A program made the position numbers and the translations under genes. The notes under the pieces are model-generated. The model was given only the letters and a program-made list of their open reading frames with translations. It made no database searches and had not been told where the DNA came from. This document shows, piece by piece, positions 20,826 to 45,596 of a DNA stretch of 46,701 bases. Numbering within the stretch: the first letter of the stretch is position 1; the number at the start of each line of letters is the position of its first letter. Source of the stretch: a virus (taxonomy: Duplodnaviria; Heunggongvirae; Uroviricota; Caudoviricetes); IMG/VR virus record IMGVR_UViG_3300045988_115807. One strand, written 5' to 3'.

Positions 20826-21160
20826 CAATACAAGAACATAAACAGAGAACATAAAAATAAAGTAATGACACAAACACAATAAAGAACATAAATAAAGAAT
20901 TAGAACCAATGCTAAATAAAGCAGTACACAAAATGAGAACATTACACCAAATGAGAACATTAATCAAGAACATAACGAAACATAATTCCCCATTATACGC
21001 GCGTATAATGGGGAATTATGTGCTGATTTTCAGAACAAAGTCAAGGAACAAATTTTAACGTTCCGATATTGTGTTTTTATTTATTATCCGTTATTGTGTT
21101 CTGTTAGTTTGTGGCTAAGTTAACGCGTTATTAGTTATCTTATTCTCAAATTGTGTTACG
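20826..21160. repeat. AT-rich tos-like region: AGAACA(T) direct repeats left of, and inverted TGTTCT/TTGTGTT repeats right of, the telomere palindrome
   Basis: CAAGAACATA, GAGAACATA, AAGAACATAAAT, GAGAACATTA (x2), CAAGAACATAACG on the left; CAGAACAAAG, TATTGTGTT (x2), TGTGTTCTG on the right. Confidence 0.6.
20980..21021. other. telRL-like telomere resolution site (42-bp perfect palindrome, telO core)
   Basis: ACATAATTCCCCATTATACGCGCGTATAATGGGGAATTATGT is perfectly self-complementary; centre between 21000 and 21001; central CCATTATACGCGCGTATAATGG matches my recollection of the N15 telO core; 171 bp upstream of telN. Confidence 0.85.
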
Positions 21161-24438: not shown

Positions 24439-24700
24439 GGTATGCACTCCGTTTTATTGGTCGTGCTACCACCAGAGTTGCGAATCTCTTTATTGGTGGT
24501 AGCCCAGGCGGGGTTCGCAATACCGGTAAACGAAGAAACCGGCCCGACCGAAGTCAGCCCCACCTGAGCCACCATAATTCGGATATGCGCAGGTCTATAC
24601 ACACAAAAAAACACGCTGGCGCGTGTTGTGCGCTTCGTTTTGCCAGGATTGCGAAGTCCCGACTGCGGGATTTACCGCAGCGAGGTGACTTTACCTCCAA
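24439..24700 (-). ncRNA. structured leader of the antirepressor operon; candidate C4/CA-type processed regulatory RNA
   Basis: Minus strand has TTGACG-18nt-TAAAGT promoter-like hexamers near 24700-24670, a hairpin plus U7 (ACACGCGCCAGCGTGTTTTTTT) near 24630-24606, and a 10-bp stem GCTACCACCA / TGGTGGTAGC just upstream of the small ORF's RBS. Confidence 0.3.
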
Positions 24701-29600: not shown

Positions 29601-30629
29601 GCCGGTATTCCCTTTTCCTTCTGTGGCTGATTTCCGGTCATTATCCAGTGCGCAGGTGATTTTTGCCGCCGGGTACATGTTTACCAGTTGTTCCACAACA
29701 TGAACCATGTTATTAGCGGATACAGCGACAACCACAGCGTCAAAGCGTTTATCTTTTTTCGTGGCAAGCCAGATGGATGCACCAGTAGCAAAACCTTCTG
29801 TAACAGCGATGTTTTGCGCCCCTTTTAGCTCACCGATAACAAAGCAGGCACCGACGAAATCGCCGCTGGTTACGGCGCTGGTCTGGTATTTTCCACCTTG
29901 TTTGTCGATTCGCTGCCAACCCACAATACGACCATCGTAACGACCGTCCAGGTGAGCCAGAGGGATAGCCATATACGTGGTTGGCCCCCTGCTCCATTTT
30001 GCGCTGTCGTGACTGGTCACGCGACGCACATCACACGAATTAAAAACGTCACGAATACCTTTTTTAATCGCATATGGCCATGAGCCGTCTTCTGCAGGAG
30101 CATGTTCCCACGCGCTGTGGAATGCCAGCCATCCCAGCAAACGTTCATGGTCCATTTGGTTGTTTTTCAGGTCATTAATTCGTTTTTGTTCTTCACGGCG
30201 ACGACGTGCTTCGGCCTGACGTTCTATTCTTGCCCGTTCTTCTTCCGGTTGTGCGACCACGGTCGCATTATTCCGTTGTTGCTCACGGCGATATTCAGAA
30301 AACAGGAAGGAGAAACCGCTCCATGAGCCAGCATCGCTGCCTTTATGGACGAAGTTAATGAACGGGTAATCAATCCCTTTGCTGTGTTCCAGCCGGGAGT
30401 AAATTTCTACGCGTCCTTTGAGGCTCTTTTCGAGAGCTTCTGGAGATGTTTTATTGTATGAAGAGTAACGCTCAACACCCCCGCGAGGGTTGAGTTGGAT
30501 GTTGTCGGAACAGGCAGACCAGTTGATACCAGCCATCTGTGCCAGCTCGGTTAGTTCATCCCGTGCTGCTTCAATTAGCGAGAACGGATCGCTGCCAAAG
30601 CGATCCGCATAGAAATCGTTTAATGTCAT
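26634..30629 (-). CDS. repA: replication protein RepA (primase-helicase, N15 RepA-like)
   Basis: 1331-aa ORF; contains Walker-A-like GMGSGKST; size and position next to cB match N15 repA, whose 3' part is reported to contain the replication origin. Confidence 0.9.
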   Translation of the reverse strand: MTLNDFYADRFGSDPFSLIEAARDELTELAQMAGINWSACSDNIQLNPRGGVERYSSYNKTSPEALEKSLKGRVEIYSRLEHSKGIDYPFINFVHKGSDAGSWSGFSFLFSEYRREQQRNNATVVAQPEEERARIERQAEARRRREEQKRINDLKNNQMDHERLLGWLAFHSAWEHAPAEDGSWPYAIKKGIRDVFNSCDVRRVTSHDSAKWSRGPTTYMAIPLAHLDGRYDGRIVGWQRIDKQGGKYQTSAVTSGDFVGACFVIGELKGAQNIAVTEGFATGASIWLATKKDKRFDAVVVAVSANNMVHVVEQLVNMYPAAKITCALDNDRKSATEGKGNTGLRTGYEILSKFNDVRCVYPTFEDDPQMECSDFNDLHKLRGLRETARQLFATANRLKTGTDLLSLTLNRLKTIKRDNRRTFAKELLRAVDIGMLTCPVPNSPSDLFNMFCIVLREMGLENIYRATVKDHIARRLNKKCRIAQAPRSFSERITDPNKRPQHITYKRFETSVMTDDVLKYVQSLQGIVIVRAGMGSGKSTGLLRPLMHSSERGISVAHRVSLIGGLWEMMTEGKGVKTDILHYQDPGYQEMAPYASKLTICINSIVKNCWQPLMRQHDYFGFDEATQGLRAVLSGRAMENPVAVFNTLIDALARTEQHPIMVDADANDLLVDLAELAMKRREELGLPAWLQIHVIELPVDVRNRETGEPIRVFYTEKDRIMTEVVKAVSDGEKIMLATDSSTFAEDVTATLRMHFPGKKFLCVNQKNKPEPEVEAFTNQPKKMVKKYDGLIYSPSISSGVSIEQKHFDRHFGMFCGEVVPSDAVQMLRRDRTAKEFIIGFDKARAKRETDPQKIERAFAQALLATAGMNGELTDVVFDGDRISMGVANTDFTRMKIKAAAIEATARNDYASNMICIMHSDGYKVSPLATDYAANDIGKDLRKEARDIVWEQTLDLHLNTETPQESEREELLKKRALTLEEQAKLVRWDIENELKLPVEEGTLKFYFDGARDKVRRYETMLLDEVTARRYDREEAAINFTYTYRQAGQWQYFVVTAMTREQADDVFKTKFPGIIDHKVKATPTVEVGARGFYALKSATLRQYFIDCGINPETMTGEATQERLKFARDNLMTAERRDLLNNVLHIGGFMTPKGKPKVPEALFKNICDSLGLKTGKRRGRDGDKRPTLRFVEPESAAFMLDILVQRQKDGLTLKTRKAEKTAIEMDRDLDLNIYMDDKTRSTNEQVQNAPHSVISEALAVLPVAVPESWAMSALSSEELATMSSWSSASIAMTFASLYLTEFMDHLSSNELRRLREYITGNSSCSYEEQGAFYG
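30250..30266. repeat. sopC-like centromere palindrome (copy within the repA 5' region, 17/18 match)
   Basis: GTGCGACCACGGTCGCA(T); same dyad as the other four copies. Confidence 0.55.
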
Positions 30630-32494: not shown

Positions 32495-32737
32495 TTCAGG
32501 AAACCGTCGAAGCCAGAATTAAGGTATTCGGGGGTAAGAAATGAATATGTTATCTGGTGTCCAACTTGTGGTTACAGGACACGACCAGATAGTAATAAGC
32601 AGTCTGTAATTGCCGATTGGTATTTATCAAATCAGCCAGGTAATAAGCATATAGAAAATCTTTGGATTAAGCGTTACTTGGAAATCAGAGAGGGTGCGAC
32701 CGTGGTCGCACAAGAAAATGAAAATAACGCCATTTAA
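32495..32737 (+). CDS. small hypothetical protein with zinc-ribbon-like motif
   Basis: MFRKPSKPELRYSGVRNEYVIWCPTCGYRTRPDS...; internal start of ORF 32417-32737; no clear RBS. Confidence 0.3.
   Translation, partial: FRKPSKPELRYSGVRNEYVIWCPTCGYRTRPDSNKQSVIADWYLSNQPGNKHIENLWIKRYLEIREGATVVAQENENNAI
32694..32711. repeat. sopC-like centromere palindrome
   Basis: GTGCGACCGTGGTCGCAC: 8-bp inverted arms with a 2-bp spacer. Confidence 0.65.
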
Positions 32738-37463: not shown

Positions 37464-37481
37464 GTGCGACCACGGTCGCAC
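37464..37481. repeat. sopC-like centromere palindrome
   Basis: GTGCGACCACGGTCGCAC (extends to CTGTGCGACCACGGTCGCACAG). Confidence 0.65.
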
Positions 37482-38897: not shown

Positions 38898-39170
38898 ATG
38901 AAGATGGATGAACGATACAGCAGCGCATCTTATGGTAGTGCTGGTCTTACTGCGTTCTTTGCCAGCCTGTCATTGCAGGATTGGGGCTTCATTATCGGTG
39001 TCGCGTTCAGCATTATCCTCGGTGTACTTACATACCGGCTCAATAAACGCGAGCAGATGAAGCGCACGAAGATATTGCAGGACATATTGGATAAAACTGA
39101 TGCCAATAATATTTCCGCCACGGCGATGGTTATTGGTGAATTGGGAAAGAGAGCACCGAAGGAAATATGA
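38898..39170 (+). CDS. holin (dual-start MKM motif)
   Basis: MKMDERY... dual-start holin/antiholin pattern; hydrophobic segments; immediately upstream of the endolysin. Confidence 0.7.
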
Positions 39171-39667
39171 TGCAGTCATCATTACGCAAAGCTGTCGCAA
39201 CTGCTATTGGTGGCGGGGCTATTGCCATAGCATCTGTGCTCATCTCTGGTCCGAGCGGCAACGATGGTCTGGAAGGTGTGAGACATAACCCCTACAAAGA
39301 CATCGTTGGTGTATGGACTGTATGTTACGGGCATACAGGAAAAGACATTATGCTCGGTAAAACGTATACCGAAGCAGAATGCAAAGCTCTCCTGAATAAA
39401 GACCTTGCTACTGTCGCCAGACAAATTAACCCGTACATCAAAGTCGATATACCGGAAACAACGCGTGGTGCTCTTTACTCGTTCGTTTACAACGTGGGTG
39501 CAGGCAATTTCAGAACATCGACACTTCTTCGCAAAATCAACCAGGGCGATATCAAAGGTGCATGTGATCAACTACGTCGCTGGACATATGCTGGCGGCAA
39601 GCAATGGAAAGGGCTGATGACTCGCCGTGAGATTGAGCGTGAAGTCTGTTTGTGGGGGCAGCAATGA
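39167..39667 (+). CDS. SAR endolysin (T4-type lysozyme, GH24)
   Basis: N-terminal signal-anchor-release-like segment [20 protein letters not shown] followed by lysozyme-like domain (…VCYGHTG…); start overlaps the holin stop. Confidence 0.85.
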
Positions 39668-40131
39668 GCAGAGTAACCGCAATTATTTCCGCACTGGTTA
39701 TCTGCATCATCGTCTGCCTGTCGTGGGCTGTTAATCATTACCGTGATAACGCCATCGCCTACAAAGAACAGCGTGATAAAAAAGTCAGTGAGCTGAAGCA
39801 GGCGACCGCCACCATCGCTGACATGCAGCAGCGTCAGCGTGATGTTGCTGCGCTCGATGCAAAATACACGAAGGAGTTGGCTGATGCGAAAGCTGAAAAT
39901 GATGCTCTTCGGCGCAAGCTTGATAATGGTGGTCGGGTGCTCGTCAAAGGAAAATGCTCTGTGCCATCCTCAGCCGAAACCTCCAGCGCCTCCGGCATGG
40001 GCAATGATGCCACCGTCGAACTCTCTCCAGTTGCTGGACGAAACGTTCTCGGTATCCGGGACGGAATCATCAGAGACCAGACAGCACTGAGAACGCTTCA
40101 GGAATACATCAAGACGCAATGCCCGAATTAA
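39664..40131 (+). CDS. i-spanin Rz
   Basis: [24 protein letters not shown]... N-terminal TM anchor followed by coiled-coil; position after endolysin. Confidence 0.8.
39884..40090 (+). CDS. o-spanin Rz1 (lipoprotein embedded in the +1 frame of Rz)
   Basis: [22 protein letters not shown]... lipobox VVGC followed by Pro-rich [16 protein letters not shown], like lambda Rz1. Confidence 0.7.
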
Positions 40132-40172: not shown

Positions 40173-40484
40173 ATGAAAATTTATATTGCCGGGCCAATGA
40201 CTGGATATGAGAACTTTAATCGTGACGCCTTTAATAAAGAGGCAGATCGTTTGTCACGACATGGTCACTCTGTCTTGAATCCAGCCACTTTGCCTAATGG
40301 TCTGACACAACGTGAATACATGGATATTTGCTTTGCAATGCTTCGTTGTGCTGATGCTATTTTGATGCTTCCTGGCTGGAAAGCGTCTGCTGGAGCAACT
40401 GCTGAGTATCATTACGCATACAAGATGGAGATGCCGGTATTCACTACGCTGAATTACCCGCCAGCTTGTTCCTCTGTAGCATAA
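40173..40484 (+). CDS. DUF4406 / nucleoside 2-deoxyribosyltransferase-like protein
   Basis: MKIYIAGPMTGYENFNRDAFNKEADRLSRHGHSVLNPA... N-terminal IYIAGPMTG motif is characteristic of this Rossmann-like family. Confidence 0.65.
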   Translation: MKIYIAGPMTGYENFNRDAFNKEADRLSRHGHSVLNPATLPNGLTQREYMDICFAMLRCADAILMLPGWKASAGATAEYHYAYKMEMPVFTTLNYPPACSSVA

Positions 40485-40503: not shown

Positions 40504-40521
40504 GTGCGACCGTGGTCGCAC
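40504..40521. repeat. sopC-like centromere palindrome
   Basis: GTGCGACCGTGGTCGCAC. Confidence 0.65.
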
Positions 40522-40722
40522 ATTAAATACCGCGCTGCATCGTCGCCGTATTTCCGCATTAACCATGACCGTAGCCCGACGGGGAACTCCTCTGCGCGAG
40601 TGTGCGGAAATAATCAAAAACGATGCACACCGGGTTTTTACCGCGCTAATGATTCGCGGGTTTGTCCCTCATGCTCGCCAGTCCTGTGCGAGGGTGGAAG
40701 AAACAGGGCATGTATTCAGGAG

Positions 40723-40740
40723 CGTGCGACCGTGGTCGCA
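40723..40740. repeat. sopC-like centromere palindrome
   Basis: GTGCGACCGTGGTCGCAC. Confidence 0.65.
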
Positions 40741-40764
40741 CGGTATCTTTGTCAGGAGGTTTTG

Positions 40765-41079
40765 ATGAAAGAGTTGCAAAAAATTAATTCAATAATGGAA
40801 AGGTTAAGTGCTCTTGAGCGTAAGCTGGACGATTGTGGAAAGCTGTGTGTTGAAAAGCAAAATGAGCTTTACCGGGAATTTTTTACAATCGTAAGTGAGC
40901 TGATGCCAATTGTTAATAACTGCCTGATGACATCCAGATTTTTTAATGTCGATGCTACTACATCCAGAAAATTTTCTGTGAAAATTCAAGAAAGGGTTTC
41001 TGGTAGTGTGACAAGAGAGATGGCTGAACAGTTGGTGGCAATGAGCAATAAAACAAAAAGAAAAAAGCATTGCTTGTAA
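40765..41079 (+). CDS. hypothetical protein (104 aa)
   Basis: AGGAGGT RBS 5 nt upstream; MKELQKINSIMERLSALERKLDDCGKL...; the upstream part of ORF 40504-41079 is judged non-coding. Confidence 0.5.
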   Translation: MKELQKINSIMERLSALERKLDDCGKLCVEKQNELYREFFTIVSELMPIVNNCLMTSRFFNVDATTSRKFSVKIQERVSGSVTREMAEQLVAMSNKTKRKKHCL

Positions 41080-41129
41080 CAGCAAATCAGCTTTCAGGGC
41101 GCGTTGACTTTCAGGTGTTGCGGCATGCA

Positions 41130-41369
41130 GATGATAATTATTATCATTGCGGGTCCTTTCCAGTGATCCGACAGGTTACGGGGCGGAAGGCGCGCGGGTT
41201 TTCGCTATTTATGAAAATTTTCCGGTTTAAGGCGTTTCCGTTCTTCTTCTCCGTAACTTAATGTTTTTATTTAAAACACCCCCTGAAAAGAAAGGAAACG
41301 ACAGGTGCTGAAAACAGGCCTTTTGGCCTCTGTCGTTTCCTTTCTCTGTTTTTGTCCGTGGAATGAACA
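41130..41369 (+). other. cos region (cosQ-cosN-cosB); predicted 12-nt cohesive end GGGCGGAAGGCG at 41181-41192
   Basis: Sequence aligns base-for-base with my recollection of the lambda cos junction (…GATCCGACAGGTTACG | GGGCGG… CGCGGGTTTTCGCTATTTATGAAAATTTTCCGG…, R3/R2/R1-like GTTTCC repeats) except within the cohesive-end dodecamer and a few cosB positions. Confidence 0.8.
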
Positions 41370-41889
41370 ATGGAAGTCAACAAAAAGCAGCTGGCTGAAA
41401 TTTTCGGTGCGAGTATCCGTACCATTCAGAACTGGCAGGAGCAGGGAATGCCCGTTCTGCGAGGCGGTGGAAAGGGTAATGAGGTGCTTTATGACTCTGC
41501 CGCCGTCATAAAATGGTATGCCGAAAGGGATGCTGAAATTGAGAACGAAAAGCTGCGCCGGGAGGTTGAAGAATTACGGCTGGCCAGCGAGGCAGATCTT
41601 CACCCCGGAACACTTGAATTTGAGCGCCATCGCCTGACTCGTGCTCAGGCGACGGCGCAGGAACTGAAAAATGCCAAAGAATCGGCTGAAGTGGTGGAAA
41701 CCGCATTCTGTACTTTCGTGCTGTCGCGTATAGCAAGGGAAATATCCAGTATTCTCGACGGTATTCCTCTGTCGGTGCAGCGACGTTTTCCTGAGCTGGA
41801 TAACCGGCATATTGATTTCCTGAAACGGGATATCATCAAAGCCATGAACAAAGCAGCCGCGCTGGATGAACTGATACCGGGGTTGCTGA

Positions 41890-41915
<26 letters not shown>
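41370..41915 (+). CDS. nu1: terminase small subunit Nu1
   Basis: MEVNKKQLAEIFGASIRTIQNWQEQGMPVLRGGGKGNEVLYDSAAVIKWY... near-identical to lambda Nu1 (181 aa). Confidence 0.95.

Positions 41916-45596
<3,681 letters not shown>

Follow-up and report, generated by a model that had tools for sequence, protein, structure and literature searches.

The DNA analysed here is the virus record IMGVR_UViG_3300045988_115807 (46,701 nucleotides; "the window" below denotes this whole stretch), which belongs to an N15-like telomere phage of the genus Ravinvirus. This work concerns a gene of the family DUF4406, located between the lysis genes and cos, which encodes a protein of 103 amino acids related to nucleoside 2'-deoxyribosyltransferases (NDTs). 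It is tentatively proposed, at slightly less than an even chance, that its product is a 2'-deoxynucleoside 5'-monophosphate (dNMP) N-glycosidase resembling DNPH1 and DmtZ and acting on nucleotide pools. The gene and the features that surround it are the following.

40173..40484, + strand: DUF4406 gene, an ATG...TAA open reading frame (ORF) of 103 amino acids, ortholog of N15 gene 57, identified by Pfam, PHROG, AlphaFold and fold matches
38898-39170: holin, upstream of the DUF4406 gene
39167-39667: lysozyme, upstream
39652-40131: Rz-like gene, upstream, 41 bp before the DUF4406 gene
40504..40521: N15-type centromere (predicted SopB-binding) palindrome GTGCGACCGTGGTCGCAC, 20 bp past the DUF4406 stop codon; context, outside the gene
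40724..40741: second copy of the palindrome GTGCGACCGTGGTCGCAC, 202 bp past the first copy (220 bp start to start)
~41170-41345: stretch that we take to be a lambda-like cosN/cosB, by the lambda cos sequence and inverted repeat I1
41370-41915: Nu1, downstream
41890-43815: large terminase, downstream

Family, fold and predicted active site

The protein matches Pfam PF14359 (DUF4406) with an E-value of 3.7e-34 (117.4 bits against a cut-off of 22; residues 1-90 on positions 1-90 of the 91-position model), as well as phrog_355, which is named 'nucleoside 2-deoxyribosyltransferase' (3e-45). The matches to PF05014 Nuc_deoxyrib_tr (20.7 bits against 28.8) and to PF09152 DUF1937 (21.8 against 23) stay below threshold; DUF1937, to which the Pseudomonas aeruginosa hypothetical protein of PDB entry 1t1j belongs, is likewise uncharacterised and therefore adds no functional information. 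None of the NCBIfam or PADLOC models matched the protein, and a sequence search of the PDB with the single protein gave no match, while the same database searched with the DUF4406 family profile returned trypanosomatid NDTs only (E 0.3-0.5). Its N-terminal KIYIAGP has an aligned counterpart of identical sequence in the Trypanosoma brucei enzyme 2a0k, in agreement with an earlier note on the sequence, which had recognised an NDT-like motif at this position and assigned the gene to the DUF4406/NDT-like family and fold.

The ortholog in N15 is the product of gene 57 (NP_046953.1; 83% amino acid identity over 98 residues), of which the RefSeq name is already 'DUF4406 domain-containing protein', and in N15 as well as in Enterobacter N15-like elements the gene has the same position after the lysis cassette. 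Relative to the orthologs of N15, Enterobacter and Klebsiella phage Kpn74, approximately 80% of the synonymous sites differ, which amounts to saturation, against 9-10% of the non-synonymous sites, and this combination shows that the ORF is no chance occurrence and is a real gene under strong purifying selection. It is a further member of a catalogued family and an ortholog of N15 gene 57, and represents no new kind of system.

Structure prediction, which the earlier note had proposed as a check, yielded a confident AlphaFold model of a shortened NDT fold (built with a 43-sequence alignment; predicted local distance difference test score 94.2, predicted template modelling score 0.87). The model runs strand, helix, strand, helix, strand, helix, strand, ends past the fourth strand at about residue 91, and has the flavodoxin-like alpha/beta fold with a parallel sheet that characterises the NDT superfamily. 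Foldseek matched it best to trypanosomatid and bacterial NDTs, and further to the cytidine monophosphate (CMP) N-glycosidase MilB and to DNPH1. As modelled, the 103-residue protein is a shortened variant of the NDT superfamily.

Residues were compared in a MAFFT alignment of 14 sequences (A3), comprising DNPH1, the NDT of L. leichmannii, DmtZ of phage Ghobes and eleven DUF4406 proteins, in which the sequences of DNPH1 and the L. leichmannii enzyme were confirmed against the PDB. Since hhalign against the single DNPH1 and DmtZ sequences was non-significant, the residue correspondences rest on this alignment and on motif spacing. The positions concerned are encoded as follows.

40182..40184, + strand: Tyr4 codon, aligned with Y24 of DNPH1, Y7 of L. 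leichmannii NDT and Y6 of DmtZ (the triad Tyr, at the end of strand 1)
40329..40331, + strand: Cys53 codon, aligned with the canonical Asp/Asn (D80 of DNPH1, D72 of NDT, N77 of DmtZ)
40386..40406, + strand: S72-A-G74-A-T-A-E78 motif, with E78 as the predicted nucleophile

The predicted nucleophile E78, located in a G-x-x-x-E motif at the start of the helix that follows strand 3, aligns with E104 of DNPH1, E98 of NDT and E103 of DmtZ. S72 precedes it by six residues, the spacing of S98 in DNPH1, and aligns with that residue, with Ser97 of MilB, with D92 of L. leichmannii NDT and with T97 of DmtZ; the protein accordingly has the Ser of DNPH1-type enzymes, and not Asp, at this place. Y4, G74 and E78 are invariant in all 14 sequences. 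Conservation computed over 147 representatives of DUF4406 clusters was complete for G7, F20, S72 and G74 and reached 99% for E78 and Y49, while residue 4 is mostly Y (86%, with F in 13%) and residue 53 mostly C (63%, with D in 15%). Two residues before Cys53, Asp51 occurs in only 48% of the representatives, and it accompanies Cys53 in only 51 of 92.

The protein is very probably an active enzyme of the NDT superfamily that acts on a nucleoside or nucleotide. A non-catalytic nucleotide-binding protein, serving as a sponge or regulator with the fold retained, would accord with its very small size, the missing C-terminal third and the loss of the canonical Asp, and is nevertheless considered highly improbable, given that a nucleophile Glu, motif Ser and Gly that are 99-100% conserved in a family of thousands of clusters are typical of an active enzyme.

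Among the characterised enzymes, DNPH1/Rcl, a 2'-deoxynucleoside 5'-phosphate N-hydrolase and sanitiser of 5-hydroxymethyl-dUMP, has the same fold as the 103-residue protein, but no significant sequence similarity, also when hhalign was run with the family profile. Its catalytic triad consists of Y24, D80 and E104, its S98 co-ordinates the 5'-phosphate, and its C-terminal extension donates S128' to the neighbouring active site (PMC10603095). Three of its residues have aligned counterparts in the protein described here, namely the Tyr, the Glu that serves as nucleophile and, six positions ahead of that Glu, the Ser that binds the phosphate. In the window protein the position of D80 is taken by Cys53, both the helical extension with S128' and the remainder of the C-terminal third are lacking, and the E55/H56 element has no evident counterpart. 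MilB, BcmB and BlsM are CMP and hydroxymethyl-CMP N-glycosidases, of which MilB is about 50 residues longer than the 103-residue protein. MilB retains Ser97 and has Phe where the window protein has Tyr, a difference that tracks the preference for ribo- versus deoxyribonucleotides, as the F17Y exchange moves MilB towards deoxyribose (PMC10603095).

DmtZ, found in the Z-genome phages Ghobes and Wayne, is a phage-encoded member of the NDT superfamily that acts on a dNMP, as a dAMP N-hydrolase and deoxyribose-5-phosphate transferase in which Tyr and Glu are essential (PMC12884076). This protein of 161 amino acids has no Pfam DUF4406 match (hhalign E 0.044, not significant), and differs from the 103-residue protein by Asn77 at the third triad position and by a full-length C-terminus; moreover, no PurZ or Z-genome genes are present in the annotation of the near-identical phage genome PhiR46_1. 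As a side observation, the DmtZ gene of Gordonia phage Ghobes (gene 53, AOE44404.1; L004, 14693-15178) is named 'deoxyuridine triphosphatase' in GenBank KX557278.

The NDTs (L. leichmannii, 1f8x; T. brucei, 2a0k) have both the N-terminal KIYIAGP and the G-x-x-x-E motif in common with the protein. In these enzymes the C-terminal end contributes to the neighbouring active site. A true NDT, which would swap bases between deoxynucleosides for salvage, is suggested by the name given to phrog_355 and used in many phage and GenBank records, by the best Foldseek matches and by the conserved Tyr and Glu. It is regarded as an improbable identity, because the Asp92 that binds the 5'-OH is replaced by an invariant Ser, as in the phosphate-binding DNPH1 and MilB, Asp72 is replaced by Cys, nothing corresponds to the C-terminal segment of the NDTs with its terminal residues, and the PF05014 score does not reach its threshold; in addition, the partner genes that accompany DUF4406 elsewhere yield dNMPs and not nucleosides.

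Distribution and partner genes of DUF4406

At E <= 0.001 the DUF4406 profile hits 19,745 clusters built at 50% identity, and the domain was detected in 633 of 50,697 phage records, chiefly of phages of actinobacteria, Vibrio and Pseudomonas. In the sampled loci outside the late regions of N15-like and lambda-like phages, the gene resides in early, replication, recombination and nucleotide-metabolism modules. For example, Salmonella lambdoid prophages have the order DUF977, DUF4406, DUF4752 right after the replication genes, and actinophage neighbours include DnaQ, sliding clamp, helicases, Cas4/RecB nucleases, RusA and ThyX. In some viral contigs DUF4406 directly follows an ORF with a DnaB-type-helicase-like N-terminus, an observation affected by noisy ORF calling and with an unconfirmed helicase label.

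Several actinophage members are fused, translationally coupled or otherwise closely linked to dNTP pyrophosphatases, a pairing that tells most about the family. Gp164 of mycobacteriophage Minerva consists of DUF4406 fused to a MazG-like (PRA-PH) pyrophosphohydrolase domain. The genes directly downstream of DUF4406 in BaboJay (gp112) and DismalFunk (gp56), which have overlapping stop and start codons with it, encode dATP/dGTP diphosphohydrolases of PF18909 (DUF5664); in MaryV a PF18909 protein (gp90) is encoded two genes downstream, and in Shelley a MazG-like gene lies two genes away. Among the fold matches in BFVD are also proteins with the name 'dATP/dGTP diphosphohydrolase N-terminal domain-containing', in which a DUF4406-type fold is present. 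A Pfam scan of 48 longer DUF4406 members for fusion partners revealed almost nothing beyond DUF4406 itself. Single divergent queries in viral-contig scans gave close relatives only, and the neighbours called automatically at 80 loci contained much noise and serve as leads only, so that the partner evidence consists of the sampled loci.

DUF5664 converts dATP, dGTP and dUTP to dNMPs, and DmtZ hydrolyses dAMP to adenine, with the deoxyribose 5-phosphate transferable to another base, which makes up the characterised DmtZ-DutZ/DUF5664 route from dATP via dAMP to adenine; in phage Wayne, DmtZ is fused to a Dut-like pyrophosphatase (PMC12884076). DmtZ is thus fused or adjacent to a deoxynucleoside triphosphate (dNTP) pyrophosphatase in the way that DUF4406 is in actinophages. 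As DmtZ is no member of DUF4406, the pairing constitutes a parallel to DmtZ-DutZ, and not shared ancestry at the family level.

In three phage lineages that are unrelated to one another, the gene immediately following DUF4406 was assigned to the DNA methyltransferases, each time to a different family: N15 gene 58 encodes a C5-cytosine methylase (PF00145) in a frame that overlaps gene 57 (L017, 3234-4542, genes 57-58), gp65 of Gordonia phage WheatThin is a PF01555 methyltransferase, again with overlapping frames (L018, 2992-4085, gp64-65), and in a viral contig (L067) a small downstream protein has a DPPH motif and a weak methyltransferase-domain match. These neighbours suggest a possible role in the handling of modified nucleotides, although the sample is too small to be ranked above coincidence. 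A DNA methyltransferase link was rejected for the window gene, the arrangement being absent from the window and three cases being too sparse against coincidence.

A further observation concerns names in actinophage records. The stand-alone DUF4406 proteins Shambre1 gp62 (L014, 3992-4321), BaboJay gp111 (L019, 2992-3324) and Percival gp30 (L168, 2432-2851) are called 'deoxycytidylate deaminase'. Scans of Shambre1 gp62 and Percival gp30 detected DUF4406 and sub-threshold NDT models only, and in BaboJay gp111 the catalytic residues are the same when it is aligned to the DUF4406 profile; judged by these matches, the deaminase names look wrong.

An exchangeable cassette in the Rz-cos slot

The location between the lysis cassette and cos, as described in the earlier note, is correct, with the lysis genes upstream and cos and Nu1 downstream. 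Over most of the region around the gene the window is approximately 98-99.9% identical to the Escherichia phages YDC107_1 and PhiR46_1. Compared with PhiR46_1 it is circularly permuted: the telR and telL ends of that genome abut near 21.0 kb (window positions ~20990-21011), and cos is internal as well, so that the window carries an uncut telRL and shows the linear map of the plasmid-prophage in permuted order.

The DUF4406 gene behaves as an exchangeable accessory cassette of the Rz-cos slot, because it is common to a lambda-like prophage, is low in GC, and occupies the slot that holds bor in related phages. The integrated lambda-like prophage of E. coli JEB8 carries an identical cassette (99.7% at the nucleotide level) in its Rz-Nu1 slot, between the Rz-like gene and nohD/Nu1, and the GC content of the cassette is 43-44% against 50-55% in the flanks. 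Among 5,426 complete E. coli genomes, 38 contain the gene, which has chromosomal as well as plasmid locations. In a consensus scan no promoter was detected in the 41-bp gap between Rz and the DUF4406 gene, with the reservation that weak signals can escape such a scan, and no terminator ahead of the centromere sites, the nearest terminator-like matches being located at the second palindrome. The gene therefore reads as part of the late transcript, within which it is probably transcribed. The 'moron position' claimed earlier is thus supported as far as the bor slot, the sharing with lambda-like prophages and the GC content below that of the flanks are concerned, whereas neither an own promoter nor an own terminator appeared in the consensus scan, and in the strict sense the gene is a putative moron.

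The slot, in which lambda-type phages carry lysogenic-conversion genes such as bor, would also suit a prophage-encoded toxin or exclusion factor, by which a lysogen would lose its NAD+ or nucleotides when another phage infects. NDT-like effectors of some retrons act by such depletion upon infection. For the window gene this role is very unlikely: it has neither a sensor or regulator partner nor a PADLOC match, the consensus scan assigned it no promoter of its own, and many other phages have the family in their replication modules, in keeping with a function to the benefit of the phage.

In N15, gene 57 likewise lies in the slot between the lysis genes and cos, and its gene block is followed by a centromere palindrome. 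N15 has in addition a small gene 56 upstream and the overlapping C5-cytosine methyltransferase gene 58 downstream, neither of which is present in the window, where, unlike in N15, two centromere sites directly follow the DUF4406 gene. An equivalently placed centromere site is found after the DUF4406 gene in Enterobacter N15-like elements and after gene 58 in N15. The 18-bp palindrome GTGCGACCnnGGTCGCAC that defines an N15-type dispersed centromere site occurs in five copies in the window (30251-30268, with one mismatch, 32694-32711, 37464-37481, 40504-40521 and 40724-40741), where approximately 0.04 copies of GTGCGACCGTGGTCGCAC are expected by chance. The SopB-binding centromere sites IR1 and IR4 of N15 have the same sequence (PMC7205306, Table 4), and the label 'centromere palindromes' given earlier to the repeats behind the gene is therefore right. 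The five copies seen here compare with four (IR1-IR4) described for N15.

Some further observations were made in this interval. The segment of approximately 170 bp between the palindromes (window 40532-40702) is duplicated further downstream in YDC107_1 and PhiR46_1 with 92-93% identity; the second copies (L001, 4883-5054; L002, 5716-5887) have no flanking palindromes, and together with the surrounding DNA (~550 bp in YDC107_1, ~1.4 kb in PhiR46_1) they are absent from the window at 41117-41124. An ORF at 40765-41079 (+ strand), preceded by a good Shine-Dalgarno sequence, caggagg, encodes 104 amino acids, against 198 in YDC107_1 and 286 in PhiR46_1; it is truncated in the window by a 1-nt length difference in an aligned stretch followed by the deletion just described, and has no match in Pfam or PADLOC. 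Pfam scans of the flanking small ORFs of the window, PhiR46_1 and N15 gave nothing useful, and Rfam detected nothing in the Rz-cos interval, of which the intergenic RNA fold (z -2.7) mostly reflects pairing of the two palindromes. Elsewhere in the window, Rfam identified a C4 antisense RNA (24492-24579, - strand, 82 bits) beside isrK (24606-24681, - strand, 53 bits). RNAs of the C4/isrK type belong to P1/P7-type immunity and antirepressor control.

Proposed function and its alternatives

What the analysis establishes is the family and fold of the protein, its conserved residues, the purifying selection and the synteny of the gene, and the partner genes of other family members; the substrate, the chemistry and the benefit to the phage are inferred, as follows. 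The enzyme would cleave or exchange the base of a 2'-deoxynucleoside 5'-monophosphate, like DNPH1/Rcl and DmtZ. Glu78 would attack C1', giving a covalent deoxyribose-5-phosphate-enzyme intermediate, while Tyr4 would position Glu78 and disfavour ribo substrates, and Ser72 would hold the 5'-phosphate, probably aided by Thr10 and Arg17, which lie in the first loop and helix. The intermediate would then be resolved by water or by another base. The likeliest benefit to the phage would be a deoxynucleotide pool that is adjusted or cleaned during replication and packaging.

Several points weigh against this proposal. The Asp/Asn of the NDT-superfamily triad is lacking, the aligned position being Cys53, and the C-terminal segment that acts on the active site of the neighbouring subunit is missing, as the characterised enzymes in the alignment extend about 40-60 residues beyond the end of the 103-residue protein; the active-site geometry, moreover, was derived from alignments alone. 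The placement in the late operon is unusual for a nucleotide-pool enzyme. All sampled partner-bearing members, which are of actinophages, have the canonical Asp at position 53, and the annotation of the near-identical genome PhiR46_1 contains no pyrophosphatase. Finally, a literature search retrieved no assayed member of DUF4406, and the papers that name DUF4406 are, by their titles and abstracts, not about its function.

The Cys53 clade, which includes the window as well as N15, Salmonella and Vibrio phages, has no partner gene, and as the partner-bearing members keep Asp, the transfer of the partner evidence to this clade is uncertain. The role in nucleotide-pool manipulation that the earlier note considered conceivable consequently holds in part: the fusions and coupling to pyrophosphatases, the replication modules and the DNPH1-like Tyr, Ser and Glu speak for it in the family, while those members that have a partner all carry Asp, and the clade of the window carries Cys without a partner. 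In an unlikely variant of the proposal, the Cys53 clade of gamma-proteobacterial phages (N15, lambda-like, Vibrio) would be a distinct catalytic form with a substrate other than ordinary dNMPs. This substrate may be modified deoxynucleotides released from methylated DNA, making the protein an 'epigenetic nucleotide sanitiser', an option that fits the DNA methyltransferase genes downstream of DUF4406 in three unrelated lineages. Alternatively, it may be a nucleotide with a leaving group that departs without acid catalysis, for instance one of the molecules derived from NAD, immune signals among them.

The latter option touches on the hydrolysis of nucleotide-derived defence signals, which had also been considered conceivable. 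A counter-defence enzyme that attacks an N-glycosidic bond, either in an immune signal derived from NAD or made of another nucleotide or in NAD+ or nicotinamide mononucleotide itself, would be compatible with the missing acid, since these leaving groups can depart with hardly any acid catalysis or none, and with the TIR-like fold. The resemblance to TIR is, however, generic to the NDT-type fold, and Tyr4 is the residue tied to the preference for deoxyribose in the NDT superfamily. Neither a PADLOC match nor defence-related neighbours were found, and the family is mostly located in replication modules, paired with dNTP pyrophosphatases. Positive evidence for hydrolysis of defence signals did not emerge, and this function is judged to be doubtful, with only a small chance of being the right one.

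The tentatively preferred assignment as a dNMP N-glycosidase bears on a very large phage-associated family for which the literature search found no experimental characterisation. If it is true, many temperate and lytic phages would carry an enzyme of approximately 100 residues that destroys or remodels deoxynucleotides, and the logic of DmtZ would apply to phages other than those with Z genomes. The assignment would further set right the inconsistent product names 'deoxycytidylate deaminase', 'MazG-like pyrophosphatase', 'hydrolase' and 'nucleoside deoxyribosyltransferase'. For the window itself the practical gain is modest, and consists of a correct annotation and the recognition of the gene as N15 gene 57.
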